A DNA stretch of 63,051 bases, the filler included, from Chrysochromulina tobinii (lineage: Eukaryota), in NCBI GenBank assembly GCA_001275005.1. It is 5 parts of 5 records of this genome, joined end to end, with 100 filler letters (N's around TTAATTAATTAA, not from the genome) between each part and the next. Parts side by side here need not be neighbours in the genome. Positions count along the whole stretch, not along the records: positions 1 to 20,531 come from JWZX01000934.1; 4 more parts are not named here. The stretch is one strand, 5' to 3'. The notes beneath the pieces are model-generated. The model worked only from the letters and a program-made list of their open reading frames with translations. It made no database searches and was not told the origin of the DNA. Every line of letters starts with the position of its first letter. Position 1 is the first letter of the stretch. Below, piece after piece: positions 2,721 through 58,071 of the stretch. Made by a program: the position numbers and the translations under genes.

Positions 2721-3305
2721 ATGCCGAGCCTCTCCTTCCTCCGCAACCACGGCAAGACCGGCCGTACGCCGCGCCGTCCTTTCGAGAAGGAGCGCCTTGA
2801 CAATGAGATGAAACTCATTGGTGAGTATGGCCTGCGCAACAAGCGTGAGGTGTGGCGCAACCAGCTGATGCTGGCGCGCATCCGCAAGGCCGCCCGTACT
2901 CTGCTCACTCTGGATGAGAAGGACCCGAAGCGCATCTTCGAGGGCACGTGCTTGCTGCGCCGGCTGCAGCGTCTGGGCGTGCTCGACGAGAGCAAGTCGC
3001 AGCTTGATTACGTCCTCGCGCTCAAGCAGGGCGATTTCCTCGAGCGTCGCCTGCAGACGCAGGTCTTCAAGCTGGGCCTCGCGAAGTCGATCCACCACGC
3101 GCGCGTGCTGATCCGCCATCGCCACATCCGCGTCGGCAAGCAGATTGTCAACATTCCCTCCTTCATGGTGCGCACGGACTCGCAGAAGCACATCGACTTT
3201 GCTGTCACCTCGCCCTATGGCGGCGGCCGGCCGGGCCGCAACAAGCGCAAGGCGATCAAAGCCAAGGGCGGCGGCGGCGGCGATGCCGAGGAGGAAATGG
3301 AGTAG
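2721..3305 (+). CDS. RPS9: 40S ribosomal protein S9 (uS4), intronless
   Basis: [60 protein letters not shown]. Confidence 0.98.
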
Positions 3306-4339
3306 AGGCGGGCCGTGCACGACCCGGTGATGGCAGCGCCCCGCCCATGCTGTGGGCTGCAAGGGTACGCGTGCTCGGTGCACCACAGTGGCCCCCCCCA
3401 CTGTGTGTAACTCGCATGTGACGAGAAAGTGTTGTAGTGCGTCCTGGATATTAATGACATGAGTACATGTACTCCGAAAAAAGGGGGAGTAGCTTTGCGA
3501 GTGGCAGAGCATTTTCCACGAATGATACGGCGTAGCGTTGCGTCCGCGCAAGCGCCAAGCCGCAACCTGAACCTGCAACCTCGGTCCTCGCCCCGCGCGG
3601 CAGTTGCAGGGGTGTGACCGGGTGTGGGCGGGCGGGGCCGCGGAACGATCGCGGCGCGATCGTGTGCCGTCGGTGTCGCCGCGGCGGTCGCACGTGTGCA
3701 TTTTGAGTTTTGTGGCTATGGCGGCGTCTCGGATCAAGCGGTCGTCCTATTAAAATCCGGGAGAACCGGGATCGTTGTTCGTTCGATCCTCCCTTCCTCC
3801 GGGGTAACTCCGGTACATTGTAACTCCGGGGTCCATAGAGCAAACGACTCTGCCCAGTGCTGCCTGCACCCGGGTTTTCTGTGCGGCAATCTACTCGCTA
3901 ATAACACCGCCGGGGCGCGGCCGCGCCCCTCGTGCGAGAACGTGTTCGTGTGTCGTGGGATGTGTGCTGTGGGTGTGTTGTAATTAGTGTATGTGGCTCC
4001 GGCTGCACTGCGCTGCCGATGCCGCGAGGCGGAGGCTGGCCGCTGGCTCCACGGGCTTCAGGCCCGGGGTTGACCCGGGCGGGGCGGCCCGAGGCGCGTC
4101 AGCACGGCCGACTGCCCGCGGAGGAGCCGTCGTGGGCGGTGTCCGTCAGCAGCTCGCTGCTCGGGGCTTGAGTGTCTACATGTACATGTATCTGTGTCTG
4201 TTTGCAAGTGGGGCGTGGTGCTGCCGACCGCTTCAGCCGTTTGGCTAGGTCGTGACGCTTTTGGCTCAAGAGGAATTGATAAGCGCGAAGCGCCGAACTC
4301 CCAACTCTCGAAACCGTCGAGCGAAGCGAAATCTGATTC

Positions 4340-7300
4340 ATGTCCGGCGGGTCCAAGGTAGGCAAGGGACCTGCAACCAAGGAGGCGCCGGCCGCTATGG
4401 CTGTGTCACCGCCTCCGGCACCGGAGCCGGTGCCAGATTCTCCGGTGCTGCCCGCGTCCGCCGATCACTGCCGAATCATGGGCTTGACTGGCTGTTCGGC
4501 AAACACAGAATCTTTCTTCGAGATTGAGGCTGTCGACGAAAACGGCAAGCGCAGCACGAGCGGCGGTGACTCTTTCTTCATTGCCATCCGCGGAGCCTCT
4601 CGTGTCCGTGCCCGGGTGAGCGACAACAAGGACGGCACCTATACGGTCATGTGGAAGCCGGAACTCTCGGGCAACTATGAGGTGGCCATATCACTCTTTG
4701 GCAACGCCATCGCAGGAAGCCCCTTTACTCTGCACGTACACGACCACTTACCGTGTGCGCCCAACTGCGAGGTGAAGGGCAGATCGTTGCATCACATCAT
4801 CGCGCGTACCAACTCGTCCTTCGAGATCATCTATCGCGACCGTAGTGGCATCGTGTGTCAAGCGGTTGAGCTCGACGTGTACGTCATGCCGATCGGAGAG
4901 GGTGAAGAAATTTACCTCTGGAAGGCGGCCACGCAACCAAATTGGGGACCGGAAGAGGACGCGTCGGCCGTACGCGAAGTCAACGCGATCGATCTGTCAC
5001 CTCAAGACGACAAGACGAAGAAGAAGAAGAAGGATGCACTCGAGAAAGCACTTGAGAAATCCGAGAAAGCCGAGAAGGGCGAGAAGACGGATAAGAAGAA
5101 ATCGCCCACGAAGCTAACCCAGCCAGCGCTCGCTGCCGCAGAGAAGACCGAGAAGAAGGAGAAGGGCGACAAGGCCGAGAAGACTGAGAGAAGCGAGAAG
5201 ACCGAGAAAACGCCCTCCAAGCCGGCCCAGCCGGCGTCCGCTGGCGCAGAGAAGACAGACAAGGTTGAGAACACCGATAGCGCTGCGAAGAGTCCGAAGG
5301 GTGACAAGCCCGAGAAGAAGGATAAGAAGGCTGACAAGAAGGAGGCCAATGGCGACAAGAAGGACCCGAACAACTCGCCCCCTCCTCCTCCCATGCCCAA
5401 GACGATGGCCTCGTCGCTGAAAAGCTGGGAAGCACGCAACCCGCTGCCGGGCTTTGATGAGCTCGAGATGCAGAGCTGTACAAGCGCGGTCGCTCTCGCC
5501 GAGCAGGGTTTGCAGCTCCGGCAACGTGCGCTGCGCGTGCAGGTGGGCGATAAGCCGCTGATCGTGCGCACCGGACCGGCACTGGACAGCAAACAGCTCG
5601 GGCTGCTGCTGCCCAGCCACATCGGGGTTGTCGTCGAGGAGCACATCGCGGCCGATGGCAACGTGCGCGCACGCATCACCTTCGACGAGACGGCGCTGCT
5701 CAAACTGTATGACTACGCAGGCTCCCTTTCGCCGCCGGTCATCGATGCCGGTCCGTCGGTGACGAGCATCGATGGCAGCGTCGTCGGATCGCCCCGTCTG
5801 CCGACGAGTCGCACGTCGCGGAGTCCAGAGGCGCGGATCGGCACACAGCTCACCGGGTGGGTCACGCTTAAAAAGGAGGGCAAGAAGCTCGTGAGCAGTC
5901 GGCTGAAGCTCGAGCCGACCAACCGGGAGCAGTACATTCAACAGTGGCAGCGGCGGCAGCTCAACGACAAGCTCCATCGCAGCGTGCAATGCGAGGTGGA
6001 CGCGTGCACCCTGATCAGCGACGAGTCGCATGTCGCCTTTGCCTATGGTGGTGTCCACCCGGGCTGGCTGCACTCAAAGGGGCAGGTGGTCGACAAGCAC
6101 AAAGTTTCTTACTCGGTGGGCAAGGTCGGCCGGTACCTGCTGCACGTGCGGCTACGCAATCATGCGGCGGCCGTGCCCGGCTCACCCTTCGCACTGACTG
6201 TCACGCCCGGCCCCGCGCACTATAGCTCGACGGTGTTCGCGCCCACCGAAAAGTCGCTCACCGGCATCGTGGGCGAGGATCCCAACGCTGGTATCACGCT
6301 GATCATGCATTCGTCGGACCAGATGGGGAATGCATGCACCGAGGGCGGGGCGATCGTCAAGACCACCTGCGTCCCATTGGGCCTCAGCGAGGAACAGGCG
6401 TGGGAAATCAAGGTCCTGACCGAGGTCGAGGACTTGTATGACGGACGCTACCGCATGAGGTACCGCAGCAAAAGTAGCGGCGCCTACCAAGTCGCGGTGA
6501 CCATCAACGGCGAGCCCGTCAACGGCTCGCCGTGGACAATGAAGCTGGTGAGCAGCACCCCCCTGCTGCAGAAGAGCTCGCTCGATGGACCCGGGCTCAA
6601 GGTCGCCGTTGCGGGCGAACGCGCACTGTTCTCCATCCGCTTTGTGGACCAGTTTGGCAACCTCGCCAACCCAGCCGGCACCGCCTTCAAGATGGGCATG
6701 GCGGTGACGTCGGAGCTGCGCAAAAAGGTCCAGGACGTCAAGGAAACCGCGTTCGAAGGGGTGTGGAGCGCCGAGGGCACTTACCAGATCCACTACATCG
6801 CGCAGGTGGCGGGCAACCTGGAGCTGCACGTCTGGTGCGATCTCAACGGCGGCAAGAGTGAGCGCATGGCCTTCCCCGGATCGCCCTTCAGCGTGTCCGT
6901 GAGCGCTGGTACGCCGTCGGCGAGCGCCTCGCACGTCGACGGCTGGACGCTCGAGAAGCGCGCCTCTAGCGACAAGAACAACGTTCTAAGCAAAAAGAAG
7001 TCCTCTGGCGAGGACGACGCAGGCAAGATCATCGCGGGTGACACGGTCTTCGTGCGCCCGCTCATCGTGGACTCCTTCCAAAATCCGGCGTCCAAGATCA
7101 ACGTGGACAAGCTCCTCGCGAAGGTTGTGCGCCCCAACGGCTCTGAGGTCGTGCTGGCGGTACAGCAGGAGGTGAGGCAGATAAAGGGGTCGGGAAGCGA
7201 GATGGTGTATGGGGTGCGATATGAGACGTCGCTCTCTGGAAAGCACGCGATGCACGTGATGCTCGGCGGTGTCAGCATCTCCGGTTCGCCCGTTGCCTTC

Positions 7301-7678
7301 GAGGTGTACGCGTCGGCGGTGGAACCGACCCTTAGCAAGCTGCTGCCGCCCGAGAACGGCAGTTTCGACTCGCTCGTTGCGGACTATGACAAGCCAAGCG
7401 AGATCATCCTGAGAACCTATGATCGTTTCGGCAATCCGTGCACCACCGGCGGTCTAAATCCTACCGGCAAGCTAACCCTCATCAAAAATCCTGTCGACAA
7501 CACCATATTGATGCCGAACAATCATTTCGTGAATACCGTGGACCGGAAGGACGGCACCTATGCGATCAATGTTGGCATGACGTTCACTAGCACGGTGAGG
7601 CTCCAGGTCAATCTCGACAAGAACGTGCAGAACGGTGACCTGCCGCCCTTGGTGCTGAAATACACCAAAAAAGAGTAG
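4340..7678 (+). CDS. Filamin/ABP280 Ig-repeat protein with a Lys/Glu-rich linker and an SH3b-like insert, intronless
   Basis: 1112-aa ORF with repeated filamin motifs: DNKDGTYTV, IAGSPF, VPGSPF, DLYDGRY, VNGSPW, FPGSPF, ISGSPV, DRKDGTY. Confidence 0.85.
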   Translation: MSGGSKVGKGPATKEAPAAMAVSPPPAPEPVPDSPVLPASADHCRIMGLTGCSANTESFFEIEAVDENGKRSTSGGDSFFIAIRGASRVRARVSDNKDGTYTVMWKPELSGNYEVAISLFGNAIAGSPFTLHVHDHLPCAPNCEVKGRSLHHIIARTNSSFEIIYRDRSGIVCQAVELDVYVMPIGEGEEIYLWKAATQPNWGPEEDASAVREVNAIDLSPQDDKTKKKKKDALEKALEKSEKAEKGEKTDKKKSPTKLTQPALAAAEKTEKKEKGDKAEKTERSEKTEKTPSKPAQPASAGAEKTDKVENTDSAAKSPKGDKPEKKDKKADKKEANGDKKDPNNSPPPPPMPKTMASSLKSWEARNPLPGFDELEMQSCTSAVALAEQGLQLRQRALRVQVGDKPLIVRTGPALDSKQLGLLLPSHIGVVVEEHIAADGNVRARITFDETALLKLYDYAGSLSPPVIDAGPSVTSIDGSVVGSPRLPTSRTSRSPEARIGTQLTGWVTLKKEGKKLVSSRLKLEPTNREQYIQQWQRRQLNDKLHRSVQCEVDACTLISDESHVAFAYGGVHPGWLHSKGQVVDKHKVSYSVGKVGRYLLHVRLRNHAAAVPGSPFALTVTPGPAHYSSTVFAPTEKSLTGIVGEDPNAGITLIMHSSDQMGNACTEGGAIVKTTCVPLGLSEEQAWEIKVLTEVEDLYDGRYRMRYRSKSSGAYQVAVTINGEPVNGSPWTMKLVSSTPLLQKSSLDGPGLKVAVAGERALFSIRFVDQFGNLANPAGTAFKMGMAVTSELRKKVQDVKETAFEGVWSAEGTYQIHYIAQVAGNLELHVWCDLNGGKSERMAFPGSPFSVSVSAGTPSASASHVDGWTLEKRASSDKNNVLSKKKSSGEDDAGKIIAGDTVFVRPLIVDSFQNPASKINVDKLLAKVVRPNGSEVVLAVQQEVRQIKGSGSEMVYGVRYETSLSGKHAMHVMLGGVSISGSPVAFEVYASAVEPTLSKLLPPENGSFDSLVADYDKPSEIILRTYDRFGNPCTTGGLNPTGKLTLIKNPVDNTILMPNNHFVNTVDRKDGTYAINVGMTFTSTVRLQVNLDKNVQNGDLPPLVLKYTKKE

Positions 7679-11331: not shown

Positions 11332-14300
11332 TCACTCCGCAATCGCCGCCAGCATGGCGCCCGCTTCTTTAGCCACCTTGGCGCCTCCCTTGGCGCGACT
11401 GGTGGACGCCGCTTTATTGGCACCCTTTTTGGCGCCCGCGCCTGCGCCTGACGCGTTCGATCGGTCGCTCTCGTTCCCGGTCGCACGTGACGTCTTGGCG
11501 ATCGCCTTCTTCTCCTTTTTGGAGAGCTCATTCGCGGGCGCCGTACTGGGCACTGTATCGGCGGCACCACGCGCTGCGGGCGGCGGCGGTGCCGGCGTCT
11601 GTGGAACGGCGCCCGGCTCGGCGCCAGCGTCTCCGTCGGCGACTTTGGCGTCCTTCCCACTGACCTTGGGAACCGACAAGTGTGGTGTGTCCTTCTTGAC
11701 GCCAAAGCGCGCCGTCGTCTTCGCGTCCTCCTTTGGCGAGGTAGGCCGCCATCCTGGTGTGCCTGGCCCCCCCGCCCCCAGGCCGCTGCCCTCCCCCCCG
11801 TCGCGGGCCGGCGAGTTCTCTTGACGTAACAGTGCTCTAGACGTACGTGGCCGATTGTACCTGTGGGGACGAGGCGCTGTGGTGAGCCCATGCATGCAAG
11901 GCGGGTCATCAGTGGCAATCAGTGGGGCCGATCGTACCCATGGGCGCTGTGGTGAGCCCATGCATGCAAGGCGGGTCATCAGTGGCAATCAGTGGGGCCG
12001 ATCGTACCCATAGGTGCCGAGCAGCTCCGAAGGCGCCGTCGTGGGCGTGGGCGGGCTGCCGGGTGTGCCGGGCGCGCGGTACGAGCGGTCGTGGATGGCG
12101 AAGCCCATCTTGGTTGCTTTCGACTTGAAGCGGGGGGAGAAGAGCAGATGCTGCAACGACTCCACCTGAACGCCGAGGGTTGGCCATCAGAGGGTCGGTC
12201 ATCAGAGGGTCATCAGAGGGTCATCAGAGGGTCATCAGATAGCCATCAGAGGGTCATCAGAGAGTCATCAGAGGGTCATCAGAGGGTCATCAGAGGGTCA
12301 TCAGAGAGTCATCAGAGGGTCATCAGAGGGTCATCAGAGGGTCATCAGAGAGCCATCAGAGGGTCATCAGAGGGTCATCAGAGGGTCATCAGAAAGCCAT
12401 CAGAGGGTCATCAGAGGGTCATCAGAGGGTCATCAGAGGGCCATCAGAGGGTCATCAGACGGTACCTGAAGCCTTGGGTTAGCATGGCATGAGTCCCAGC
12501 CTCGCCCCTTGATGGTGGGGTTCGTCTCGCCGTTCGCGCGCTTCTCCGCCAACTCCTCGGCCGCCTGTGTCGCGTAGGGGGACCATCAGTCGGCATCAGT
12601 CGCAATCAGTCGCCATCAGTCGCCATCAGTCGCCATCAGTCGCCATCAGTCGCCATCAATCGCCATCAGTTGCCATCAGTTGCCATCTGTCGCCATCACG
12701 CACCTGCGCCTTGAGGGTCTGGAAATCGGGGTACTCGTGTGTAATCATGTGTAATCAGGGGTACTCGTGTGTAATCAGGTGTCCTCGCGCACCTGCGCTT
12801 CTAGGGTCTGGAAATACGATTTCTGCACTGGGATCTTGATGGCGAACGTTCGATCAGGCTGTGGAGCATCGACGTTGAGCAATTGCAAGATGCCCACAGC
12901 TTGCTTTCTCAGCCAGTTCTCGGGGCCGTGCGAGATCGCAATCAGCGGCTCGATGGCGCCGTCCTCGGAGATTTGGCGAGCTGCGGACGGATCTCCCGCC
13001 AGGTTGCACAGCGCGGCGGCCGCATAACCCTGCGCCTCCGACTTGCTCTTGAGCAGCAAGACCAGCGGCGCGATCGCGGCGGCTTCGGTCACCGCCTTGC
13101 AGAACATCGGCTCAGAGGTCAAACCCCACAGCGCACACGAGGCATGCTTCTGCGCAGGAAAGACAATGAGCGACACTCAGAAGGCAATCAACGGCCATGA
13201 ACGACACTCAGAAGGCAAGCAGCGGCCATGAACGACACTCAGAAGGCAATCAGCGGCCATGAACGACACTCAGAAGGCACTGTGTGTCGACTATTGACCG
13301 TTCACACCTGTGCTCCCGCAGACCCATGGGTGAGAAGCTGGACGAGGTGTGGGATGCCGCCCGCTTGGACGAGGCATTGCTTCACCCCCCCCTGCTTGTC
13401 CTTGGCGAGGTCTGCAAGCAGTGCCGCGATCGAATCCTGAGCTTCGGGGCTGTCGGTGCGCCCGAGGAGCTTGACTAGAGGCGCGATGCCTGATGAGGAC
13501 AGCAATCAGAGTGAACTCAGTTCGCGCTCAGTGCCAATCAGAGGACCATCCGTCCACTCATCAGCTGATGAGGACAGCAATCAGAGTGGAGCTCAGTTCG
13601 CGATCAGTGCCAATCAGAGGACCATCCGTCCACTCATCAGCTGATGAGGACAGCAATCAGAGTGGAGCTCAGTTCGCGATCAGTGCCAATCAGAGGACCA
13701 TCCGTCCACTCGTCAGCATGCACTTATCAGCATGCACTTATCAGCATGCACTTATCAACATGCACTTATCAACATGCACTCGTCAGCATGCACTCGTCAG
13801 CATGCACTCATCAGCATGCACTCATCAGCATGCACTCATCAGCATGCACTCATCAGCATGCACTCATCAGCATGCACTCATCATGGGCGATCCCTCCGCA
13901 GGCAATCCCCGGCCTTGCCGAATCTCAAAGGGCAATCCCCGGTCTTGACGAATCTCAAAGGGCAATCCCTCCGGGCTCACCCCCGGCCTTGACGAATCTC
14001 AAAGGGCAATCCCTCCAAGCTCACCCCCTGCCTTGACGATCGCGGCCTTATTCGCGGTGGACGAGTCGAGATGGAAGAGAGCACATGCGGCATGGTTGGC
14101 CGCTGTGACACGCTCGCTCGTCAGCAGTGCGACGAGCAAACCGATGCCGTCGGCTTCGGTGATGCGCTGCTGTGCCGTCGTGGATGAGGACAAGTGCCAG
14201 AGCGCCGCGCTCGCCCTTGTCTGTGCCTCGAGAGCCATCTTCTGAGCCTCGGCGCCCACCTGCATGCATGCAATCAATCGCCATCAGGGTGCAATTAGGG

Positions 14301-17300
14301 TGCCATCTCAGGTACCATCAGAGTGCCCTCAGGGTGCAATCAGGGTGCAATCAGGGTACCATCAGGGTGGAGTCAGGGTGCAATTAGGGTACCATCAGTC
14401 ACAGCCAGAGGCCATTAGAGGCAATGAACGACGCTCACCTTATGAGCCGAGCTTGCGCCGAGCATCTTGACGAGAGGCTCGACACCGCCCGCCGCCACGA
14501 TCTGCTGCTTGCACTCCGAGCCGCGCGCGAGGTCGGAGAGCGCCGCGGCGGCGCGCACCTGTGGGGAAGGGAGGAGGTCGCGCCGTGGTGAGCACTTGCA
14601 TGCAAGGCAGAGGTTGGAGAGAGCCGCGGCGGCGCGCACCTGCATGCATGCAATTGGAGGCCACCGGACGCCATCAGGGGCACTCAGACGCAATCAGTCG
14701 CACTCAGCGCGCGCACCTGCGACTTGTTCACGTTGCGACCGTCCCCGAGGAGCTGTACGAGAGGGAGGATGGCGCCTGCCGCCGCGATGACCAGCCGATT
14801 CTCTGCGGACCGGTTCGCGAGCATGGCGAGGGTTTCTGCGGACTTCATCTGCGCCGCGGCGTTCCTCCCTTCGAGGAGGGCCACGAGGGGCTTGACGACC
14901 GCGTTGCGATTCTCTTGATTCGGCGCCGCGATGTGAAGGATCGCCCCCTGAGCATACCTGTGAAACGCGAGGTGTGAAACGCGAGGTGTGAAGCGCGAGG
15001 TGTGAAGTGCGAGGTGTGCACGCGAAAGCGCCGTAGTGAGCTCTCGCATGCAAGGCTGCTCGTTCATCAGTGGCCATCAGCGTACCCTTGCGTCGCCTCC
15101 GACTCGGCGCCCAGGAGGCCAACCAGAGGTGCGATGGCTCCAGCGCGTGCGAGGGACACCTGTGGGGACGCAGTGGGGGCGTCGTGGTGAGCACTTGCAT
15201 GCGGAGAGGTGCGATGGCTCCAGCGCGTGCACGGGCCAATCTCGGACCAATCTCGGTCCGGTGTCGGGGCAATCTCGGACAAATCTCGGTCCGATGTCGG
15301 GGCAACCTCGGGGCGATCTCGTGAGGGTGTTGGGTGAGCACCTGGTTCTCGGGGCAATCTCGGGGCAATCTGGGAGCGATCTCGTGAGCACCTGGTTCTC
15401 GGGGCAATCTCGCGAGAGGCTTTCCATCGCAGCGGCGGCGAACTCCTGCGCACGGTCCGAGTCCGCAGAGAGGTTGGCGACGAGCGCGGGCAGCGCGCCT
15501 TCGCGCGCGATCATGAGCTGGTTGTCGGGGGTCGACGAGAGGTGCCAGAGCGCTCTGGTCGCGTTCTCGCGAGGCCCGAGGGCGTTGGCGCACAGCACCT
15601 GTGGGGAAGCAGGCGCGGCGTCGTGGTGAGCACTTGCATGCTGAGAGGCCCGAGGGCGTTGGCGCACAGCGCCTCGACGAGCGGTCCTCAGAGGTCACCA
15701 GAGGTCATCAGAGGTCATCAGAGGTCGTCAGAGGTCATGAGCACCTCGACGAGCGGTGGAATCCCGCCTTCGTCCGCGACCGCAATCTTATTCATCTGGC
15801 TGCCCGCGGCCACCGCCGCAAGCGCGCCCGCCGCCCACTTTTGGGCATCGGCCTTCGCATCAAAGTCCGCACTGCGCTTGAGGGTGCCATCATCTCCCGG
15901 CAAGGCCCCCTTGGCGCCATGCTTGAGCATCGAGACGAGCGGGCGGATGGCGCCGGCTTCGACGATGGTCGTCTGCGCGTCGGAGGTAGGGCGCATGTAA
16001 TGAGAGGGCTCATCAGGGCTCATCATGGGCTCATCAGAGGCTCATCAGGGCTCATCAGGGCTCATCAGGGCTCATCAGGGCTCATCGGGGCTCATCGGGG
16101 CTCATCAGGGCTCAACAGAGGTGTCCTCAATCGCACTCACCTGCACGTCAGGCGAATCGCGCGCGAGGTCCGCCAGGGCGCGAGCGGCCATCTGCGGCGG
16201 TCCGAGGCTTGGGTCCACCTGTGGGGACGCACAAGGGAGGCGTCGTGGTGAGCACTTGCATGCTGAGAGGTGCGATGGCTTGGGTCCGATGGAGGCTAAG
16301 GTGCACCAGCCACTCCACGAGCGCCGAGATGGCGCCGGCCGCCGCGATCGAGAATTGCGTCGCCGAGTTCGCGCCCGGCAGTGCAGCGCGTGACATTTGA
16401 GCGAGGGCGAGTGCCGCGTGTCGTTTGGCGCCTCGAGAGCCGGTGCGGAGGAGCTTGACGAGAGGCAGGATGCCGCCTGATGAGGGAGGCCATCACGAGT
16501 CAATCAAGAGGTCATCAGTGGGAGGAGCTCGACGAGGGGCAAGAGCGGGCGGGCGTACCCGCAGACACGATGTCGGCCTTGTTGACGGCGGTGAAGGAGA
16601 TGACGGCCGGGATATCATCCGAAGTAATCCCCGAGAGCACCGCGGCAGCATGCTCCTGCGCGACGAGGGAAAGGTTGCCGGACCGCAGGATCTTGATGAT
16701 CGGGTCCGCACAGCCCGCGCTCGCGATGGACACCTTCGAGACGATGTCGGATGCCGAGTACAGCAGCCAGAGCGCGTACCTGGGCACAAGGAGGGAGGAG
16801 GCGCCGTGGTGAGCGTCCGCATGCAAGGCAGCTAGGTCATCAGTGCGGCAATCAACGTACTCTTGGGCTTCGAGTGACCCAGTGGCAATCAGTGGCAATC
16901 AGTGGCAATCAGTGGCAATCAGTGGCAATCAGTGGCAATCAACGTACTCTTGGGCTTCGAGTGACCCAGTGGCAATCAGTGGCAATCAGTGGCAATCAGT
17001 GGCAATCAACGTACTCTTGGGCTTCGAGTGACCCATCCTTGAGTAGGCTGACGAAACGCTCGATGCCGCCCGCCATCTGGACCGTCATCTGGGACTCGGC
17101 GCCCCCCGACTCTGCCATGCCCTTGAGGGCCGTCCACGCGCGCTGGCGTACTTTGACGTCAGGCGATCCGAGCAGTTGGATGAGTTGTGCCGTCACCTGA
17201 TGAGGGAGGCAATCATCAGGTCATCAGAGGCAATTAGAGGGCAATCAGAGGTCATCCGACGCAATCAAGAGGCAATCATCAGGTCATCCGACGCAATCAG

Positions 17301-20300
17301 AGGGCAATCAGAGGTCATCCGACGCAATCAAGAGGCAATCAGAGGTCATCCGAGTCATGTAGGCGGGTCGCACAGCGGTCAGAGATCTACAATCGTCAAA
17401 GGTGTGATCACACCTCCGAGTCCGTAGCGATACGTAATGAGACTCATCAGCCCGCGGCAGGCAATCACATGCAATTACAGAGGTCATCAGAGACTCATCA
17501 GAGACTCATCAGAGACTCATCAGAGACTCATCAGGGATGCAATCACGAGATCAGATGGATCGAGTGCCGTCAGTGTTCGTCAGTGGCAATCAGATGCACA
17601 CAGATGCAATCAGATGCAATCAGATGCGATCGAGTGTCGTCAACGTTCGTCAGTGGCAATCACCTGCACGCGATGCTGTGCCGACTTGAGCGCAATCTGC
17701 CCAAGCGCCGATGCAGCGTGCGTCTGCCCCTGTGCAGTCTGCCCATCCCGCAGCTTGCGAGCGAGCTGTGGGATGGCGCCCCACTTTGCGAGCGCCCCCC
17801 GGTTCTCCGAATCGAGAGAGAGTGAATAGAGCAGCTGGGTTACGGTGTCCTGATGAGGGAGGCAATCAAGAGGTCATCAGAGGTCATCAGGGAGTAGAGC
17901 AGTTGACGAAGTCCAGTGGCGGGAGCCCGCGCGCCGTGACGAGCACTTGCACGCGGGCGGCTCGCGGCTCGGGCGGCGCGAGTGCCCACGACGACGCGGG
18001 GTGGCGGCTCACCTGCGCCTCATTCGAGGAGGTGTCCTGACTGAGCATCGCGACAAGGTTCTGGGCGACCGTCGATTGGTTGTCAGCGTTGGCGACGACC
18101 ATAGTGGAGAGGGCTCCGGCGGCTTGCGTCTTCGCCTCGGCCGTGCCTGTCTCAACGAGCGCCACAGGTCATCAGAGGCCATCAGAGGCCATCAGAGGTC
18201 ATCAGAGGTCATCAGAGGTCATCAGAGGTCATCAGAGGCCATCAGAGGCCATCAGAGGTCATCAGAGGGCCATCAGAGGGCCATCAAAAGGCAACAGAAG
18301 TTCTCAGAAGTCGTCAGCACACCTGTCTCGAAGAGCGCCACGAGAGCAGGTACGCCACCCGCCTTAGCGATGGCCACTCCGTTGCTGTGAAGCTTGGCTA
18401 GTGAGTGCAGCGCGCCCGCCGCCGTCTCTGCGGCCAGGGCGCCCCCCTCGCTACCTGATGAGGGAGGCAATCAAGAGGTGTCCTCAGCGATCATATGAGG
18501 TCATCAGGTGTCATCAAGCTACCAGATGAGGGAGGCAATCAAGAGGTGTCCTCAGAGACATCTCAAAGGCCATCAGAGGCAACCGGAGGTGATTAGAGTC
18601 CATCAGAGGCCATCAGAGGTGATCAGAGGTCATCAGAGGTCATCAGAGGTCATCAGAGGTGATCAGAGGTCATCAGAGGCCATCAGAGGTCATCAGAGGT
18701 CCCTCGGCAGTCCCCCACCTGGCTGCAGCAGCGCGACCAGCGGAATGATGCCGCCGCATTCGAAGATGAGCTGCTGATTGGGCGCGTGATCAGCGGCGAG
18801 GCTCCAGAGAGCCCCGGCGGCATCTCGATGCACCTCGGGAGATCCTTTCGAGAGTAGGCCGATGAGCAGTGGCACGCCGCCCGCCGTGGCGATCGCCTTT
18901 TGATTGGGCCCGTTTTGGAAGGCCATCGACCAAAGCGCCGAGGCAACCTCCTTTTGGAGGAGCACCTGATGATGAGGGGGGGCAATCGAGACGTGTCATC
19001 AAGAGGTCATCAGTGGTCATCAGAGGTCATCAGTGGTCATCAGAGGCGCGTATCGGAGGCACGGAGAGGTCATCAGCCTCTTGGTACGCAACCAGTCACG
19101 CAACCAGTCACGCAAGCAGTGCTCCTCAAGGGAGATCGCACCTCGGCCTTGTCGATCCCCTTGACGCCCGATGAGAGCATGCCAACGAGCGGCCCGATGG
19201 CGCCCCACCTGCATGCAATCAGTGGCAAGCATCAGTGGCAATCATCAGTGGCAATCAGTGGCAGCATGCCAATGGCGGCCCGACGGCGCCTCACTTGGCG
19301 AGCGCCTCTTGATTGGACGTAATCAGAGGTCATCAGAGGTCGTCAGAGGTCATCAGCGGCCCGACGGCGCCTCACTTGGCGAGCGCCTCTTGATTGGATG
19401 TGTGAGCTCGCGCGAGGTTCGAGATCGCACGAGCTGCCTTCGTGCGCGTCGGCGTATCGGGCGCAGTGAGCAGCTGCACGAGCATCGTCGCGATCGTGTT
19501 CTGATTCTGCGGATTATCGAGTGCGATCGCTGCTAGCGCCCCCGCCGCCTGAAGTTGCGTCTCGGCACCGCCGACTCCCAACAAGGCAACCAGCGGCGCT
19601 AGTCCCCCCGCCTCCGCAATCGCCGCCTGGTTCTGCGCATGGTTCGCCGAGAACGACCAGAGCGCCGAGGCGGCGGCTTTCTTCGCCGACTCGGCCCCGT
19701 CGCCTTCGAACCACGAGACACGAAGGGGCGCGCTGTGGTGAGCACTTGCATGCAAGGCGGGTGCACAGAGACCATCCGCGTGATTCGCGAGTCTTGCACG
19801 TACCTTGGAGTAGCGCCACGAAGGGTGCGATGCCCCCAGCCTGGGCGGCGGCGCTCTGGTTGGCCGGGTTGTCGCGCGCGAGCTCGGAGAGGGCAGAGGC
19901 CGCGCGGGCATTCACCTGATGAGGGATGCAATCAGATGTCATCAGAGATCATCAGAGGCCATCAGCGGCCATCAGCGGTCATCAGCGGTCATCAGCGGCC
20001 ATCAGAAGCCATCAGGAGCAATCACCTCGTCTCCGTGCTCGCGTGACAGAAGGCTCACGAGGGGCGCGATGCCACCCGCCGCCGCGATCGCCGTTTGGTT
20101 GTCCTTCGAGCCCATCGCTATCGACGCCAGTGCGCCCGCCGCCTTGCCCTGCGCCTTAGTCGACTCTTCGTGCAGCAGTCTCACGAGTGGTGTGATGGCG
20201 CCGATGCCCGCAATCGCCTGATGAGGAATGCAATCCGAGGTCATCAGAGGCCATCAGAAGGTGTCGCGAGTGGCGTGATGGCGCCGATGCCCGTAATCAC

Positions 20301-20531
20301 CTGCGAGTTGGCAATCAGAGGCACTCAGAGGCACTCAGAGGCAATCACCTGCGAGTTGGCCTTGTTGTTCCGCGAGAGCGACCAGAGGGCGCCGGCGGCT
20401 TCGGAGCGGGCCTCCACCCCCCGGCTCGCTACGATGTTGACCTCACCCGCGCTGATGACGAGCTCAATCGAATTCCTTCTCTCTCGAGTGGCGGCGGCGA
20501 CGGCGGCGGCGGCGCCCTGTAGAGAATCATC
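11332..20531 (-). CDS. Armadillo (ARM) repeat protein, about 24 exons, 5' end lost at the linker
   Basis: Exon translations repeatedly give ARM consensus (AAGALWSL, NQxAIAxAGGIAPLVxLL, AGAIRPLVSML), separated by GT-AG introns full of tandem repeats. Stop at 11332. One apparent +1 homopolymer slip near 19205. Confidence 0.9.
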
Positions 20532-20631
20532 NNNNNNNNNNNNNNNNNNNNNNNNNNNNNNNNNNNNNNNNNNNNTTAATTAATTAANNNNNNNNNNNNN
20601 NNNNNNNNNNNNNNNNNNNNNNNNNNNNNNN
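20532..20631. other. Artificial contig linker
   Basis: N44-TTAATTAATTAA-N44, with stops in all six frames. Confidence 0.98.
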
Positions 20632-21473: not shown

Positions 21474-23207
21474 TCAATCAACTTTTGGTGCAAAGCATAG
21501 GATGGCGCTGGGAGGCACTGCAGCAGATTTGAGAATGCTGTCATCGAAGCCGGCGGGCAGCTTGATCAACGTCAACGAAGAGCAGCCACGGAAGGCCCCC
21601 TTACCGATGCTCGTGAGGCTGGCGGGCAGCTCGATCGACGTCAATGAGGAGCAGCCATAGAAGGCGCGCTCACCGAGGCTCGTGAGGCCGGCGGGCAGCT
21701 CGATCGACGTCAATGAGGAGCAGCCTTCGAAGGCCCACTTACCGATGCTCGCGAGGCCAGCGGGCAGCTCGATCGACGTCAACGAGGAGCAGCCATAGAA
21801 GGCGTACCTACCGAGGCTCGTGAGGCTGGCAGGTAGCTCGATCGACGTCAACGAGGAGCAGTTAAAGAAGGCGCCATCACCGATGCTCGTGAGGCCGGCG
21901 GGCAGCTCAATCGACGTCAACGAGGAGCAGCCAGCAAAGGCGCTCCTACCGATGCTTGTGAGGCCGGCGGGCAGCGCGATCGACGTCATCGAGGAGCAGC
22001 CGTAGAAGGCGCACACACCGATGCTCATGAGGCTGGCGGGCAGCGCGATTGACGTCAACGAGGAGCAGTCCTCGAAGGCGCTCTCACCGATGCTCGTGAG
22101 GCCGGTGGGCAGCGCGATCGACGTCATCGACATGTCGTCGCGGAACGCGTTCACCGGCACGTGCGCCTCGCCATGGCGCAGCACGCACGCCGCGAGCAGC
22201 ACCTCCATCGGCACCTTGCCCTCGCCGCGGATGCACGCGCGCACCCCTGCCATCGGATACGGTTGCGTACCATCATCATATTCTTCCGATACATCCGAAG
22301 ACTCCACGCTCCTCAGCGCGGCCACGTCCACCTCGAAACCGCCCAGCCCCGTCACCTTTGCCAGGTTGGGCAGCCAGCGCGACGCGTCGACCGCGTCGGC
22401 GATGAGGCGACCGGCGGCGCGGCTGCCCGAGAGGTCGAGCTCGGTCACCTCGAGGAGGTTGCTCGTGAGCGGCAGGCCGACGCGTGCGCACAGCCGCGCG
22501 CACAGGACGCGCCGCGCTCGCGCACGCCACGCGAGGCTCACGCCCTTGAGTGCACACAGTGTCGGCACGTCAGCGTCTGCGAGGGCGTCCTCGAGGGCGT
22601 CCTCGTTGACGAGCTGCGTCGAGAGCCAGCACACGGGCGCTGGCGGTGCGGGAGCGTCGGCCGCTCGCGGTGCAGTGGCGTCGTGCTGAGCGTCGTCGTG
22701 CGTGAAGATCGGCTCTTCCGTCGCCGCCTGCCGCTCCGCCTCGGTGGGGAAGTCGCTCACGACGCCCAGCAGCCGCCCGAGCTCCGCGCCACTCTTGCCG
22801 GCGAGGTGGCCGGTGCACAGGGAACGTGAGAGGAGTCGGAGAAGCTCGACGTCCACGTCGAGAAAGTGCGCGCCATGCAAAAGCTGCGCGAGGTGCGCGA
22901 GCGAGCACCCCTCCAGCGCCCCGCCCTCCTCCGCGCCGCCCTCGGCGACGCGCGAGAGCGTGCGGAGCGCAGCCGCAGGCACCAGAGTGGCGAACGCCCC
23001 CTCGGCGCCGCCCGTGTCGCCCACCCAGTTGGCGAGCGCCGCCGATCGCGCCGCGGCCAAACGGGACCACGCGACCACCTTGCCCTCGACGCTTCGCACC
23101 CTCACATCGCCGTCAACGCCGTCGCCGCCGATGACGTCGCCGCCGCCGCTGTCACCGCCGCTGCCGTCTCTTTCCCGACATCGCTTCATGCTAAAAAAGG
23201 ATATCAT
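21474..23207 (-). CDS. Skp1-like + F-box-like + BspA-type (LRR_5) leucine-rich repeat fusion protein
   Basis: LLHGAHFLDV...LAGKSGAELGRLLGVVSDFPTEAERQ matches the Skp1 C-terminal domain pattern. NEDALEDALADADVPTLCALKGVSLAWR matches the F-box pattern. Eight full 23-aa repeats SLTSIxLPAxLTSIGxxAFxxCS follow. Confidence 0.8.
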   Translation of the reverse strand: MISFFSMKRCRERDGSGGDSGGGDVIGGDGVDGDVRVRSVEGKVVAWSRLAAARSAALANWVGDTGGAEGAFATLVPAAALRTLSRVAEGGAEEGGALEGCSLAHLAQLLHGAHFLDVDVELLRLLSRSLCTGHLAGKSGAELGRLLGVVSDFPTEAERQAATEEPIFTHDDAQHDATAPRAADAPAPPAPVCWLSTQLVNEDALEDALADADVPTLCALKGVSLAWRARARRVLCARLCARVGLPLTSNLLEVTELDLSGSRAAGRLIADAVDASRWLPNLAKVTGLGGFEVDVAALRSVESSDVSEEYDDGTQPYPMAGVRACIRGEGKVPMEVLLAACVLRHGEAHVPVNAFRDDMSMTSIALPTGLTSIGESAFEDCSSLTSIALPASLMSIGVCAFYGCSSMTSIALPAGLTSIGRSAFAGCSSLTSIELPAGLTSIGDGAFFNCSSLTSIELPASLTSLGRYAFYGCSSLTSIELPAGLASIGKWAFEGCSSLTSIELPAGLTSLGERAFYGCSSLTSIELPASLTSIGKGAFRGCSSLTLIKLPAGFDDSILKSAAVPPSAILCFAPKVD

Positions 23208-30594: not shown

Positions 30595-31083
30595 TTGACC
30601 CATAGGGGAGGGTATTCTTTCTGGATTCACACACTATCCCCACCACCTGATTTTGAACTCAGTGGTTGACCCAAAGGGGTAGGGGAGGGTATTCTTTCTG
30701 GATTCACACACTATCCCCACCACGGCACCAGCACCACCTGATTTTGAACTCAGTGGTTGACCCAAAGGGGTAGGGGAGGGTATTCTTATTTCTTTCTGGA
30801 TTCACACACTATCCCCACCACCTGATGATTTTGAACTCAGTGGTTGACCCAAAGGGGTAGGGGAGGGTATTCTTTCTGGATTCACACACTATCCCCACCA
30901 GCACCACCTGATTTTGAACTCAGTGGTTGACCCAAAGGGGTAGGGGAGGGTATTCTTTCTGGATTCACACACTATCCCCACCACCTGATGATTTTGAACT
31001 CAGTGGTTGACCCAAAGGGGTAGGGGAGGGTATTCTTTCTGGATTCACACACTATCCCCACCACCTGATTTTGAACTCAGTGG
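30595..31083. repeat. Minisatellite, six copies of a 77-bp unit
   Basis: ttgacccaaaggggtaggggagggtattctttctggattcacacactatccccaccacctgattttgaactcagtgg; copies differ only by short indels. Confidence 0.95.
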
Positions 31084-31985: not shown

Positions 31986-32085
31986 NNNNNNNNNNNNNNN
32001 NNNNNNNNNNNNNNNNNNNNNNNNNNNNNTTAATTAATTAANNNNNNNNNNNNNNNNNNNNNNNNNNNNNNNNNNNNNNNNNNNN
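31986..32085. other. Artificial contig linker
   Basis: N44-TTAATTAATTAA-N44. Confidence 0.98.
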
Positions 32086-43900: not shown

Positions 43901-45226
43901 GCCGCTCGCCGCCGTGCCCAGTACGGCGCCGTCGGCCGTCCGCGCCCAGTACGGCGCCTTCTTGAGCACGTCTTGGAGGTAGAGCTCTCGCGCCTGGTTC
44001 GCGGCGAGAGCCTCGACCACCGACGCGCTGCTCTCCGCCGCGGCCGCGGCCTCCACGGCCGCCTCGAGTCGAGCTTTGAGCTCGGCTGGCATGTCGCCAC
44101 CAGAGGCGCCTCCCTTGCGCGGCGACTTGGGCCGAGCGAAAGAGGGGCCACCTTTCGAACGCTTCGCGGTCTCTTTTGTCTCCTTGGGCGCGAGGATGGT
44201 GACCGTCGCGCGGATGTCGTAAAACGGCGTGGGCCGGTGCAGCCGGACCTCGCGCTTGCGCGTCACGCAAAGCCCGAGCACCGCGATATGCCCCATGCCG
44301 TACGTGAGCGTGCGCACCCGCGGCAGGCTCAGTGCCTCGCGGACCGCCTGGCGCAGCGCGCGCGTGAGCAGACGGGAGAAGGCCAGGTATGTTTTGAGCT
44401 CGAGCTCGAGCCGCGCGTCTACCGCAGCCGCGCCCGTCGGGTCAGGCTTGACCAGACGGCGCAGCGAGCGCTGCAGCGCCGCGGGAGCGATGCTCGAGAA
44501 GCGCGCGCGCCACACGCGGTCGGGTGTGAAGCGCGGCAGACAACGAAGCACTTCGAAGATGATCGATTCACCCTCGAGATCGCACGAGGTCCAGAAGCAC
44601 ACCCAGCCGCGCCCGTGCGACTCACGCGCGAGGTGCTCGCGCACGCCGACGCGCTCGCTCGCGGGCTCGGCGACGCGGCGCATCTTGGCACCGAAGAGCT
44701 CGCGGAGGTCACGCTCGCGCGGCTCGCCAATCGGCGCCACGAGCTCGAGCGACTGCAGGTGGCCGCACACCGACGTGATCGCAAACGAACACGATTTGTT
44801 GCCCGCAGGCGGGAAGTGACCAAAGCAGTCGTGCACTTTGAGCAGGCCGTGGCCGCGCGTGCGCCGATTGCCCGACGATAAGGCCTCGGCGATCGCGAGC
44901 GCGACCGACGGCCGGTCGGCGATGTGCAGCACGCTCGCGTCGTCGTACGTCTCCGCGACCGAGCGGCCCCACTGCGTCGTGCCGGCGCCCGTTGGCGTGC
45001 TGCGCGACTTCGGCGAGGCGGAGCGGCCGCGCAGTTGCGGACCGGCCGCCGAACGCGCCATCGAAAAGCTCTCGCGCGCGGGCAATACCGAGCGGCCGGC
45101 ACGTGCATACGCACGCTCCTGCGCCACCGAGGGTTGTGTCGTGTCGGGTGTGATGCTGATGTCCAAGGTCTGCCCGATGCCCGATGGCATCCCCGCCCGA
45201 GGAAGAAGGTGCGAGGACGCTCGCAT
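40496..45226 (-). CDS. TOP3B: Type IA DNA topoisomerase, TOP3B-like, with degenerate TOPRIM, long low-complexity C-terminus and terminal CCHC zinc knuckle; intronless
   Basis: TSVCGHL, CDLEGESIIFEV, RARFSSI, AVDAR, AEELY..GLITYPRT, HPPI, GVGTDGS; C-terminal CAYCYVSGHALAQC. Confidence 0.85.
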
Positions 45227-49804: not shown

Positions 49805-49904
49805 NNNNNNNNNNNNNNNNNNNNNNNNNNNNNNNNNNNNNNNNNNNNTTAATTAATTAANNNNNNNNNNNNNNNNNNNNNNNNNNNNNNNNNNNNNNNN
49901 NNNN
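49805..49904. other. Artificial contig linker
   Basis: N44-TTAATTAATTAA-N44. Confidence 0.98.
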
Positions 49905-54055: not shown

Positions 54056-57000
54056 ATGCGCGCGCCCCTCATCAACAATGACGGGCCGGCCACGTTGAGC
54101 GGCCGCGATCCACACGCGTCGCACAACAACCTCGGCATCATCAACGGCTGCTACGTCCCGGTTCTGCTCAACATCCTCGGCGCGGTTCTCTTCAGCCGCG
54201 TGGGCTTTTCGGTCGGCTTCCTCGGCTGGGCGGGTTCACTCCTCCTCTTCTGCTTCTCGGAGTCGATTGCATACCTGACGATCACCTCGTTCTCGGCGCT
54301 CGTGACCAACGGGCGCATGCGCGGCGGTGGCGCCTACTATATGATCTCGCGCTCGCTCGGCCCAGCGTTCGGAGGCTCGTGCGGCCTGCTCTTCTGGCTG
54401 ACGTACTGCCTCAACGTGACGTTCAACACGGTCGCGTTCACCGAAATGTTCGTGACGACCTTCCTGCCCGAGTGGAGCGGCGGCAACGAAGGTCAGATTG
54501 ACTGCAACGTCGAAGTCGACCCAAGCGGCAACGCGTTCGCCAACACGTTCGCGATGAGCCCCGAACAACTCAAAAAGGTCGCCGTTTCGTCCTTCACGCT
54601 CTTCCTTGTGTTCCTCGTGGGCTTCAAGGGCGCGGGCGCGTTCGCGCGTGTGAACGTCGTCATCTTCAGTGGCCTCATGCTCTCGCTCGCCGTGGGCATC
54701 GGCACCATCTGGCTCTCCCGCACACCACGTGCCATTGAGAAGAAGCTGATGTTCCTGGTGACCGACGCTGATGATTGCATGCTAATGGCCCTCTGATGGC
54801 CCTCTGATTGCATGCCCATGGCCCTCTGATGGCCCTCTGATGGCCCTTCCTCTTCGCGTGCTGAGTACCCCCTACTGGCATGCAGGTGAACCTCTCCGGC
54901 GCCCTCGAGGACATCGAAGCAGAGCTCTTGCCTTCGCGCTGGGCTGACGCTCAGAAGGGCAACCTGTCTGTGGCTTTGTTCCCTTTCGCCTGGTCCGCAG
55001 ACTGTCCCGTGGCAAGCCTCGACGGTGTCGCGCTCTCATGCGGGCCCAATGGCAAGGTGAGTACCACCGAGTACCACTGATGACCGCTGATGACCGCTGA
55101 TGACCTCTGACGGCCACTGATGACGATTTCTTCTCGCGCTTTCCGAATGGGTACAGTACGGTCTGGCGGAGACAGCGTGGCCCAAGTGGGGTATCCGCTC
55201 GTCTCAGTGTGGGTGCGCCGAGTGTGACCTCTCCCACGTGTTCGGGATCATCTTCCCTGCCGTGTGTGGGCTGATGGAGGGCGCCAATCTCTCGGGTGAT
55301 CTCGCCGACCTCTGATGACCTCTGATGACCGCTGATGACCGCTGATGACCTCTGATGACCGCTGATGACCGCTGATGACCGCTGATGACCGCTGATGACC
55401 GCTGATGACCTCTGATGACCTCTGATGACCTCTGATGACCTCTGATTGGAGGGCGCCAATCTCTCAGGTGATCTCGCCGACCCGGGATTCGCCATCCCGT
55501 ACGGCACCCTCGCGGCTGTCTCGACCGCCTTCTTTTTCTACATCATGCTCATCTTTGGTCAGGTGAGTCCTCTGATTACCTCTGATTACCTCTGATTACC
55601 TCTGATTACCTCTGATTACCTCTGATTACATCATGCTCATCTTTGGTCAGGTGAGTCCGAGGACCTCTGATTACCTCTCTGATTGCGTCCGAGTGCGTCC
55701 GAGTGCGTCTGATTGCGTTTGAGTGCATAAGTTTACCACTGATTGCCGCCCCTTGAATGCGCTCATCATCTTTCGTCTGTGTGCAGGCGGGCTCGCTCGA
55801 CCGCATCGCCCTACAATTTGACATGGATGTGATGCAGGTGAGTGCAACTGATGACCACTGATGGCCACTGATGACCACTGATGACCACTGATGACCACTG
55901 ATGACCACTGATGACCACTGATGACCACTGATGACCACTGATGACCACTGATGACCACTGATGACCACTCACAATTCGACAATGGATGTGATGCAGGATG
56001 CCTGCATCAACCAATACTTCATTGTGATGGGCATCAGCACAGCCTGCCTCTCGACCTCCCTAGGATCCCTCTTTGGAGCCTCGCGCATCTTGCAAGCCAT
56101 CGCGCGCGACAACATCTACCCGTGCCTGCGCCCGTTTGCGTACGGCTCGCGCACCGGGGACGAGCCTCGGGTCGCGATCGTGCTCTGCTGGGCTGTGGCG
56201 CAGATAGGCTTGATGCTCGGCGACCTCTCAGCTGTCGCCCCTATCTTGACCAACTTCTTTCTGATCACGTATGCGTTGACGAACCTCTCGGCCTTCTTCT
56301 TGGCAATCTCCAAGGTGCCTCCCTCATGGTCACTGAGTGCCACTGATTGGCACTGATTGCGATCTCTCAGGTGCCTCACTCATCATGGCCACTGATTGCC
56401 ACTGATTGGCACTGATTACGATCTCCCAGGTGCCTCACTCATCATGGCCACTGATTGCCACTGATTGGCACTGATTACGATCTCTCAGGTGCCCAACTAC
56501 CGGCCGCACTTCAAGTACACGCACCCGCTCCTCTCCCTCCTCGGTGCCTTCCTCACTCTCGCCGCGATGGTCTATTTGAATGCGCTCTTCGCGCTGATCA
56601 CCGTCCTCTTCGTGCTCGCCCTCTTCGTCTACATCACCTTCAGCTTCAAGGTGAGTGAATCTCGGAGTGACCTCTAATTGCCCTCTAATAGCCCTCTATT
56701 GCCCTCTAATTGCCTCTGAATGCCTACCTCATCAGGAGCACTCGCGATGGGTCGATATCTCATACGCGCTCGCATACAAGGTCGCCGTGGCCGCGCTGCG
56801 CACCATGGAAGGCCAACGGCGCGATCCCAAATATTGGAGAGCTTCCCTCGCGCTGCTCCTTCCGATCGAAGGTAACCCTCACTCCCAACCCCAAACCCCA
56901 ACCCCAACCCCAACCTTAGCTTTAACCCCAACCCCAACATCATCCTTAGCCTTAACCCCAACCCCAACTTCAATCTTAGCCTGAACCCTAACTCGCGCTG

Positions 57001-57971
57001 CTCCTCCCGATCGAAGGACGCGAAGCCACGTCGCTCTTGGGCCGCCCCTGATGACCTCCCTCATTGGGTGATGGCCTCCCTCATCAGGACGCGAAGCCAC
57101 GTCGCTCTTGGGCCGCCCCTGATGACCTCCCTCATTGGGTGATGGCCTCCCTCATCAGGACGCGAAGCCACGTCGCTCTTGGGCTGCTTCGCCTCCATCG
57201 CCTCCGGTGCGCCGATCACCGTAGGGCGCGCCGTCCTCGTGCCCACGACGACGCCCTTGGGCTCTTCACCCACGTCGCCGCCCTCGCCGCCTGGCGCCGA
57301 GCTGGGCGCGAGCGGCATGGCGGCGGCGGTGCTCAACGCGCAGCAGCTGCTCGGCGCCCAACTCGGCGCCATTCGCGCGGCCCTGCCGCTCGGCGCCCCC
57401 GACGCGTATCCGCAGGTCGTCTAATGGCCCTCTAATGGCCCTCTAATGGCCCTCTAATGGCCCTCTAATTGCCCTCTAATAGCCCTCTAATTGCCCACTA
57501 ATTGCCCACTAATTGCCGCTCGGCGCCCCCGACGCGTATCCGCAGGTCGTCGTCGGCGCTTCCTTCGTAAACGCGTGCCTCAACCTGATGCTAGGCGCCG
57601 GGATGGGCGCGTTGGCGCCCGACGCCCTCGTGATCCCGCTGCCGCCCGCGCCCTCGTCCCCGACGAGCGCCGTCCCGGGCGTACCCGAGCCCGGCGTGCC
57701 TGCCGCGACCATCCGTGCGAACATGGAGATGGAGATGGTGGTGCACGAGACGATCGCCCTTGGTCGAAACTGCCTCGTCGCTGCGAATTTCGGGTCCGCG
57801 CGCGCCGCCGAGTGCTGGGGCGCCAAGTCCCACGGCCTGCAGCTGATGGCGAGGCAGGCGGCGGAGGCCCTGAGCGGCGGCGCCGGCGCCGGCGCCGGCA
57901 CCGGCGGCACCGGCGGGGGCGGCGGCGGCAGCGGCGGCAGCGGCAGCGGCAGTGGCAGCGGCGGCAGCGGC
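54056..57971 (+). CDS. Cation-chloride cotransporter (SLC12/CCC family), multi-exon, 3' end lost at the linker
   Basis: GCYVPVLLNILGAVLFSR, TNGRMRGGGAYYMISRSLGPAFGG, FPAVCGLMEGANLSGDLADP..AIPYGT, GASRILQAIARD, APILTNFFLITYA, PNYRPHFKY. Confidence 0.93.
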
Positions 57972-58071
57972 NNNNNNNNNNNNNNNNNNNNNNNNNNNNN
58001 NNNNNNNNNNNNNNNTTAATTAATTAANNNNNNNNNNNNNNNNNNNNNNNNNNNNNNNNNNNNNNNNNNNN
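57972..58071. other. Artificial contig linker
   Basis: N44-TTAATTAATTAA-N44. Confidence 0.98.

Follow-up and report, generated by a model that had tools for sequence, protein, structure and literature searches.

How new introns originate is still debated, and the accounts of intron bursts given in recent surveys attribute most of them to transposons (PMC12130899). The question raised by the present locus is how introns arose that carry, inside themselves, copies of the exon ends that flank them. An earlier note, made from the sequence alone, had described such copies in an ARM-repeat gene and a GH5 gene of Chrysochromulina tobinii and had proposed that junctions are repeatedly re-duplicated after intron birth, creating decoy splice sites. 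A search of mostly open-access literature, taking in the main text of introner surveys, turned up no account of copied exon junctions in the introns of haptophytes; the main text of a 2025 survey, datasets aside, mentions neither haptophytes nor Chrysochromulina.

The DNA analyzed was a single stretch of 63 kb (63,051 nucleotides, hereafter the window), and the genes were chosen for having such introns. Its GC content was about 62%, that reported for Chrysochromulina tobin being 63.4% (PMC4580454). Linkers of N with a short stop-codon spacer at 20532-20631, 31986-32085, 49805-49904 and 57972-58071 mark the window as five joined contigs, and they cut the 5' end of the ARM gene and the 3' end of a transporter gene. 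The sequence of the window was present in ten culture DNA runs and partly in six lake RNA runs. By eye, intron density was very uneven: long genes at 2721-7676, 33526-35061 and 41000-45060 appear intronless, their intron-rich counterparts being the ARM gene (23 introns) and the transporter gene (at least 9). Repeat arrays were noted between genes at 30603-31083 (80-base, tandem) and in coding sequence at 21549-22130 (69-base), and a short stretch near a contig start (32095-32150) recurs, again by eye, 21 kb away at 52965-53030 and is possibly the end of a repeated element.

The intron set comprised 37 introns of 4 genes: ARM (23), GH5 (4), transporter (9) and ALAD (1). Removal of the 23 GT-AG introns of the ARM gene left a single reading frame, open over 1553 codons and running from the edge of the contig (20531), with a Pfam Arm match in exon 4; the protein is 72% identical to P0001/P0029, and alignments with homologues span about 1300-1400 residues. 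The GH5, transporter and ALAD intron sets, modelled from the DNA, each gave an open frame. The transporter junctions were colinear with homologue P0039 at 8 of 9 sites, and the closest named homologue of a transporter exon was from Prymnesium parvum (69% identity). Phase 0 was found in 22 of the 37 introns. Five of the seven phase-2 introns lie one base before a tyrosine codon (16779, 14957, 11860, 27691 and 27361), as expected if the donor was borrowed from the next exon. The features discussed below are collected in Table 1.

Table 1. Positions in the window of the genes, introns and sequence elements discussed in the text.
Feature	Position	Strand	Description
ARM-repeat gene	11335..20531	-	24 exons, 23 introns; 5' end cut at linker
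ARM intron 1	20261..20312	-	52-base spliced-junction copy (-12 to +40); internal AG/GT at 20300
ARM intron 4	19209..19375	-	first 21 bases match next exon start, 2 mismatches
ARM intron 4, internal junction copy	19320-19263	-	-26 to +33; two arrays in intron
ARM intron 7, acceptor echo	18165-18147	-	last 19 bases match upstream exon end, 17/19
ARM intron 10	16780..17014	-	26/26 copies of exon end and donor at 16968-16943 and 16881-16856
ARM intron 14	15599..15744	-	array, 41-base spliced-junction copy (-13 to +28), then module B
ARM intron 15	15160..15391	-	repeated exon-end pieces; spare AG/GT at 15341
ARM intron 17	14559..14716	-	two back-to-back units, 77 and 81 bases
ARM intron 18	14220..14450	-	12 extra codons exactly at junction, absent from P0029, P0009 and P0003
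Acceptor module A, example	17197..17216	-	12 occurrences in window with at most 2 mismatches; in 11/37 introns
Acceptor-side module B, example	16240..16263	-	12 occurrences in window with at most 4 mismatches, always sense; in 9/37 introns
GH5 gene introns	27981-27692, 27466-27362, 27286-27100, 26920-26760	-	long echoes in three, 8-base terminal repeat in the other
SLC12-type transporter gene	54758..57545	+	nine introns
Transporter intron 3	55296-55467	+	terminal copies of 15 and 24 bases flanking a single array
Transporter intron 5	55838-55996	+	acceptor from 26-base exon-end copy
Transporter intron	56315-56488	+	three tandem acceptors, each AG/GT, 59 bases apart
Transporter intron 8	56872-57158	+	54-base junction copy, two tandem acceptors
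Transporter intron 9	57416-57545	+	acceptor from 32-base exon-end copy; 32 + 6 bases exact around one array
Recursive-splicing candidate sites	14640, 12703, 20300, 15341, 55651, 56370, 56429		AG/GT

All the examples of copies (echoes) that had been listed for the ARM gene were found at the sites named, the exon-start copy that precedes the acceptor at 15599 lying at 15685-15645, and those claimed for GH5 were recovered as copies at 27955-27905, 27266-27209, 27185-27139 and 26862-26825. An echo of the intron's own flanks (local score of at least 14 against the flanking 40 exon bases) was detected in 17 of the 37 introns, and the flanks of other introns reached this score in 7 of 1332 pairs; in these 37 introns of one window echo similarity was higher than in controls, which confirms the observation of the earlier note and extends it beyond the examples given there. 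In the ARM gene alone the figures were 9 of 23 introns versus 5 of 506 swapped pairs. The mean echo score was 15.6 versus 7.9 in the control and was reached in none of 100000 permutations. Reverse-complemented flanks gave no echo at the same score in any of the 37 introns (inverted-template test), so the copies are in direct orientation only. Twenty of the 37 introns were without a clear long echo.

The echoes came from the junction: matches were found in 22 of the 74 windows that cover exon bases 0-40, compared with 3 of 72 at 20-60, and successive windows farther out gave 0/64, 1/60, 0/58 and 0/48, a total of 1/230 beyond 40 bases. Exon-end copies often start some 19-26 bases ahead of the junction, and the copies of exon starts often finish at +28 to +40. 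Since the copies range from perfect (26/26, 32/32) to about 85-90% identity, they point to events of several ages. Local duplication was also found elsewhere, in 22 of 53 non-array windows inside introns versus the 22 of 74 at junctions, in 22 of 210 windows between genes (clustered in a small number of arrays) and in 8 of 313 coding windows. Introns thus show local duplication no less often than junctions do, and it occurs between genes too, so that junctions need not be its targets.

The echoes fell into two classes. In the terminal class, an intron end repeats the exon on the far side in register: intron bases 3-6 were identical to next-exon bases 3-6 in 82 of 148 comparisons (expected 49; 0/20000 permutations), and at the 3' side intron bases 3-14 matched the previous exon's end in 171 of 444 (expected 126; 0/20000). 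An exact terminal repeat of at least 7 bases was present in 11/37 introns versus 67/1332 controls; exact terminal repeats measured 2-38 bases and echoes up to 58. The clearest terminal echoes were those of transporter introns 9 and 3. Since a duplication after birth cannot easily place the start of the next exon at the 5' end of an intron, many terminal echoes are, on the sequence evidence, likely scars of intron birth. In transporter introns 3, 5 and 9 and ARM introns 4 and 7 the exon copy supplies splice sites, and the register test, together with ARM introns 7, 14 and 17 and transporter introns 5 and 9, points to one site coming from the duplication and the other being carried. Of the extra codons at ARM intron 18, the downstream part is a 21-base-period repeat (15/24) and likely a retained piece of a duplication, and extra codons at that place are what would be expected of an imprecise intron gain.

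In the later class, the exon end with its donor, or the acceptor with the exon start, was copied inward. Eight of 11 internal donor or junction copies share with the 5' end of their own intron bases that the exon lacks, indicating that the template was genomic DNA and not mRNA. For these copies the proposal that junctions are re-duplicated after intron birth is supported; it does not extend to the many echoes that likely mark birth itself, namely the in-register terminal repeats and the copies of the already spliced junction, 41-59 bases long, that lie inside ARM introns 1, 4 and 14 and transporter intron 8. In ARM intron 14 the donor within this copy reads GC. ARM intron 10 has 10-base arrays between its copies and ends with acceptor module B, and its spare donors are not preceded by AG. 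In ARM intron 15 an exon-start copy ends at 15205, ahead of module B. In ARM intron 17 a complete acceptor lies inside the intron at 14640; a copy of the exon start, 30 bases long (14643-14610), comes next, and then module B. The history of ARM intron 4 reads as a duplication of the exon start with acceptor-bearing filler, followed by two substitutions and then by a duplication of the exon end and the new donor with a second array. The filler of transporter intron 8 (56872-56991) is a C-rich hexamer array unlike those of the other introns and faintly telomere-like; a telomere origin was rejected as weak, there being one true telomere-type hexamer and eight variants.

Two other readings of these classes were weighed. 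The introns may be old and the genome prone to slippage, the echoes being neutral post-birth duplications that happen to straddle junctions. The frequency of duplication inside introns and between genes agrees with this, as do the 8 of 11 internal copies that are plainly later, but it leaves unexplained both the in-register terminal matches to far exons and the 41-59-base spliced-junction copies, and the protein records of homologues run through the intron positions; we consider it very improbable. Alternatively, the spliced-junction copies could have been patched from mRNA or cDNA, by failed intron loss or RNA-templated repair. Those of ARM intron 14 and transporter intron 8 do follow the exon for 28 of 30 bases past the junction without any intron-specific base. 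However, the copies of ARM introns 1 and 4 share 1 and 2 bases, respectively, with the 5' end of their own intron that are absent from the mRNA, and two successive DNA events explain all four copies, which makes patching a highly improbable source.

The copies were separated by filler that introns have in common. Arrays of 6-14-base units, mostly of period 10 or 11, filled 3112 of 7145 intron bases (44%) and occurred in 32 of 37 introns; they covered 219 of 8075 exon bases. The word CTGAT, which resembles the branch-point consensus and would give the arrays a putative branch-point role, occurred 230 times in sense and 14 times in antisense. Rfam gave no match in the window, and thus no known small-RNA family explains the arrays. 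An exon-start echo was found within 45 bases before module B in 6 of 11 cases versus 4 of 110 (this set includes one gene outside the four), and in those 6 of 11 it ended at exon +20 to +36. At the seams between echo and array the mean microhomology was 2.0 bases versus 0.35 expected by chance (16 non-independent seams, one count of 5 leaning on a gap). Contigs of DNA run X1 branched off in numbers at modules A and B and at arrays (4169 on 2.5 kb); since many other X1 contigs do so at the modules, these appear to be spread through the genome. The final 60 bases of ARM intron 12 (16280-16219) recur as those of ARM intron 15 (15219-15160), and 15 of these bases match the exon after intron 15. 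Copying of the 3' end of intron 15 into intron 12 (62 columns, score 48) is suggestive only, intron 12's own exon explaining the shared bases nearly as well.

The shared filler brings in the main rival to duplication with filler, an introner with long duplications. Here a mobile element, SINE-like or otherwise lacking inverted ends, would make long and variable target duplications, the modules and arrays would be its eroded and slippage-extended body, and re-insertion would nest the copies. Shared modules, all of them in sense orientation, agree with a mobile element no less well than with repair; also in its favor are the echoes that stop at +20 to +36 before module B and the role of modules and arrays as hubs for thousands of X1 contigs; moreover, introners with 4-bp duplications and described without inverted ends have been reported from a Chrysochromulina genome (10.1101/2022.06.06.494994). 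Against this, none of 666 intron pairs in the window was 80% or more identical end to end (best 0.77, driven by arrays), intron lengths varied from 82 to 535, inverted termini were absent (4.84 versus 4.97 in the control) and duplication lengths ran from about 5 to 58 instead of being fixed. Some introns have an array as their sole filler, and either splice site may be borrowed. Within the window, then, of the marks of introners site borrowing was found, and an end-to-end family, a fixed short duplication and terminal inverted repeats (typical of many families, not of all) were not. We regard an introner as possible but rather unlikely.

That the repeats were produced in assembly was considered with the same DNA run, the earlier note having made its reading depend on support for the repeats in raw reads. 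Run X1, which may be of the window's own strain, matched 16498-16876, 17006-17210 and 17861-18192 with no difference. Its contigs contain the acceptor echo of intron 7 and two of the three intron 10 copies; among the 32 of 5425 X1 pieces listed, the middle intron 10 copy was absent. This absence and the joining of five contigs in the window are what an artefact would have in its favor. On the other hand, most copies carry substitutions relative to their source, X1 contigs hold several of them unchanged, and the same pattern appears in three genes, which lie on two contigs; the chance of an artefact seems to us close to negligible.

Splice-site use was read from lake RNA contigs. The outermost sites were joined in all 17 of the 23 ARM introns that could be read; ten introns were joined directly by RNA contigs from four lake studies, and introns 4, 7, 8 and 10-13 were read from record coordinates. 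For introns 1, 2, 15, 16, 20 and 23 no joint was present among the RNA rows listed. Of 78 RNA joints 15 were listed; ten were modelled introns, and the other five, short array-to-array joins, were set aside as repeat noise. In ARM intron 4 the outer donor was used (record coordinates, X12 record 10), as it was in intron 10, where X16 record 22 joins 16774 to 17010 with 68 exon bases on the donor side. The intron 7 junction was found in X12 and X11 contigs, the outer joint of intron 14 in three RNA runs, and contigs from three studies skip the inner acceptor of intron 17 and join the outer one. RNA contigs drop rare forms and decay would hide alternative products; the lake strains differ from the window by a few bases per hundred, and their introns may differ too.

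The spare sites could nevertheless be in use, either in recursive splicing through zero-length exons or in alternative splicing coupled to decay. Seven of the 18 read AG/GT and would divide their introns into segments of 48-182 bases (none of the seven lies in ARM intron 4 or 10, the lead examples of the earlier note), and ARM intron 17 consists of two complete units, use of the inner acceptor adding 27 codons in frame. The joints of the outer sites cannot discriminate recursive splicing, since recursion would give the same mRNA. Yet 17 of the 18 inner choices would cause a stop or frameshift, nine sites cannot be ratchet points for want of an adjacent AG or GT, and two more are without a core GT or AG. 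Use of the spare sites is accordingly improbable, and the earlier suggestion that decoy sites allow alternative splicing was not borne out; these sites are likely by-products and not a regulatory device. In the transporter intron at 56315-56488 the frame is kept by the last of the three acceptors only; this intron is a good candidate for recursive splicing.

The age of the ARM introns was judged from homologues. P0029 (72% identical; its contig measures at most 16.8 kb) has no insertion of 8 or more residues across the region shared with ARM, 20 of the 23 intron positions being ungapped in the protein record. The lack of insertions in the shared region suggests that the 23 ARM introns are lineage-specific and were recently gained. 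In its N-terminal part P0029 has two low-complexity insertions, 71 and 61 residues long (at about 267-338 and 416-477), that resemble introns translated by read-through; their first residues are similar to those of the next exon, hinting at an echo there. No polymorphism for the presence of an intron was seen. A metagenome scan with ARM exon 21 (8 of 64 parts) gave at least one relative among 597 candidate stretches; this relative, L001, is a distant locus without introns and may be a transcript. A viral scan with a transporter exon found no relative among 14. When ARM repeats were compared with their paralogues, 4 of the 23 best matches had an intron position in common, which is uninformative.

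Taken together, we find it probable, if only narrowly, that these introns were made and later rebuilt by recurring short local duplication with filler borrowed from other introns. This reading draws directly on the duplications, their anchoring at junctions, the shared filler with its sense polarity, the microhomology at the seams, the nested order and the joining of the outer sites. In the recurring DNA event a short local stretch of about 5-60 bases would be duplicated, and filler would be copied into the space between the resulting repeats. Within an exon, one copy would supply a splice site (the start of the next exon as donor, or the end of the previous exon as acceptor), and parts common in other introns (10-11-base arrays with CTGAT, modules A and B) would supply the rest of the new intron. 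An existing junction hit by the same event would gain, within the intron, an additional donor or acceptor, presumably tolerated since splicing continues to join the outer sites; after two successive events the intron would contain the junction in its intronless form. The molecular cause may be the repair of staggered breaks or template switching. A bolder and rather doubtful version is that introns are made in bulk without a transposase: existing introns would template arrays and modules into exon breaks, the duplicated exon would give the missing site, and repeated hits would stack short introns with zero-length exons that are spliced recursively. If this were true, introns would be a self-feeding source of new introns.

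In the four genes nearly half of the introns retain traces of their assembly, which are of several ages and can be read in a nested order. If the pattern is genome-wide, it offers a testable case of large-scale intron gain, either by duplication with borrowed intron parts or by an introner with long duplications. It also provides short introns with natural competing splice sites, and it is a warning that gene prediction in such algae can choose the wrong copy.

Among known systems, Emiliania huxleyi compares in filler: Read et al. are said to have noted in 2013 that 10-11-base tandem repeats are concentrated in its introns, and repeats of this size in haptophyte introns are the likeness; exon-junction copies are not known to be part of that account. 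The introners described from Chrysochromulina sp., Symbiodinium and Polarella resemble the present introns in carrying one splice site and taking the other from target duplication, and in their phase-0 bias; they differ in their fixed duplications of 3-8 bases and families of similar copies (10.1101/2022.06.06.494994, 10.1101/2020.10.14.339549), whereas here the duplications are long and variable, no pair reaches 80% identity and inverted ends are lacking. In tandem genomic duplication, as set out in PMC3443670, a duplicated exon segment supplies the splice sites and imprecise cases add codons, which compares with ARM intron 18. In the present genes, by contrast, the two copies are separated by foreign filler, which in most cases provides one of the sites; only 25 of the 37 exons have a terminal AG and 21 of the 37 following exons an initial GT, and the introns are not made of the duplicated segment alone, arrays being present in 32 of 37 along with the shared modules. 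Tandem duplications made in the repair of breaks with 3' overhangs, by Pol alpha-primase or Pol theta, are likewise tens of bases long, with seam microhomology in the Pol theta route, although they were described in mammalian cells with engineered breaks (PMC8355091).

In Daphnia pulex, according to the account in PMC4202315, new introns arose from staggered double-strand-break repair with secondary insertions. The gains there were proven by presence/absence alleles, whereas here they are read from the sequence of one window, and the repeats there are 4-17 bases long, compared with about 5-58 here, where they are accompanied by shared sense-strand arrays and acceptor modules. The likeness lies in the direct repeats at intron ends, in internal repeats above chance and in the stepwise, "staggered-then-staggered" growth of the intron (PMC4202315).
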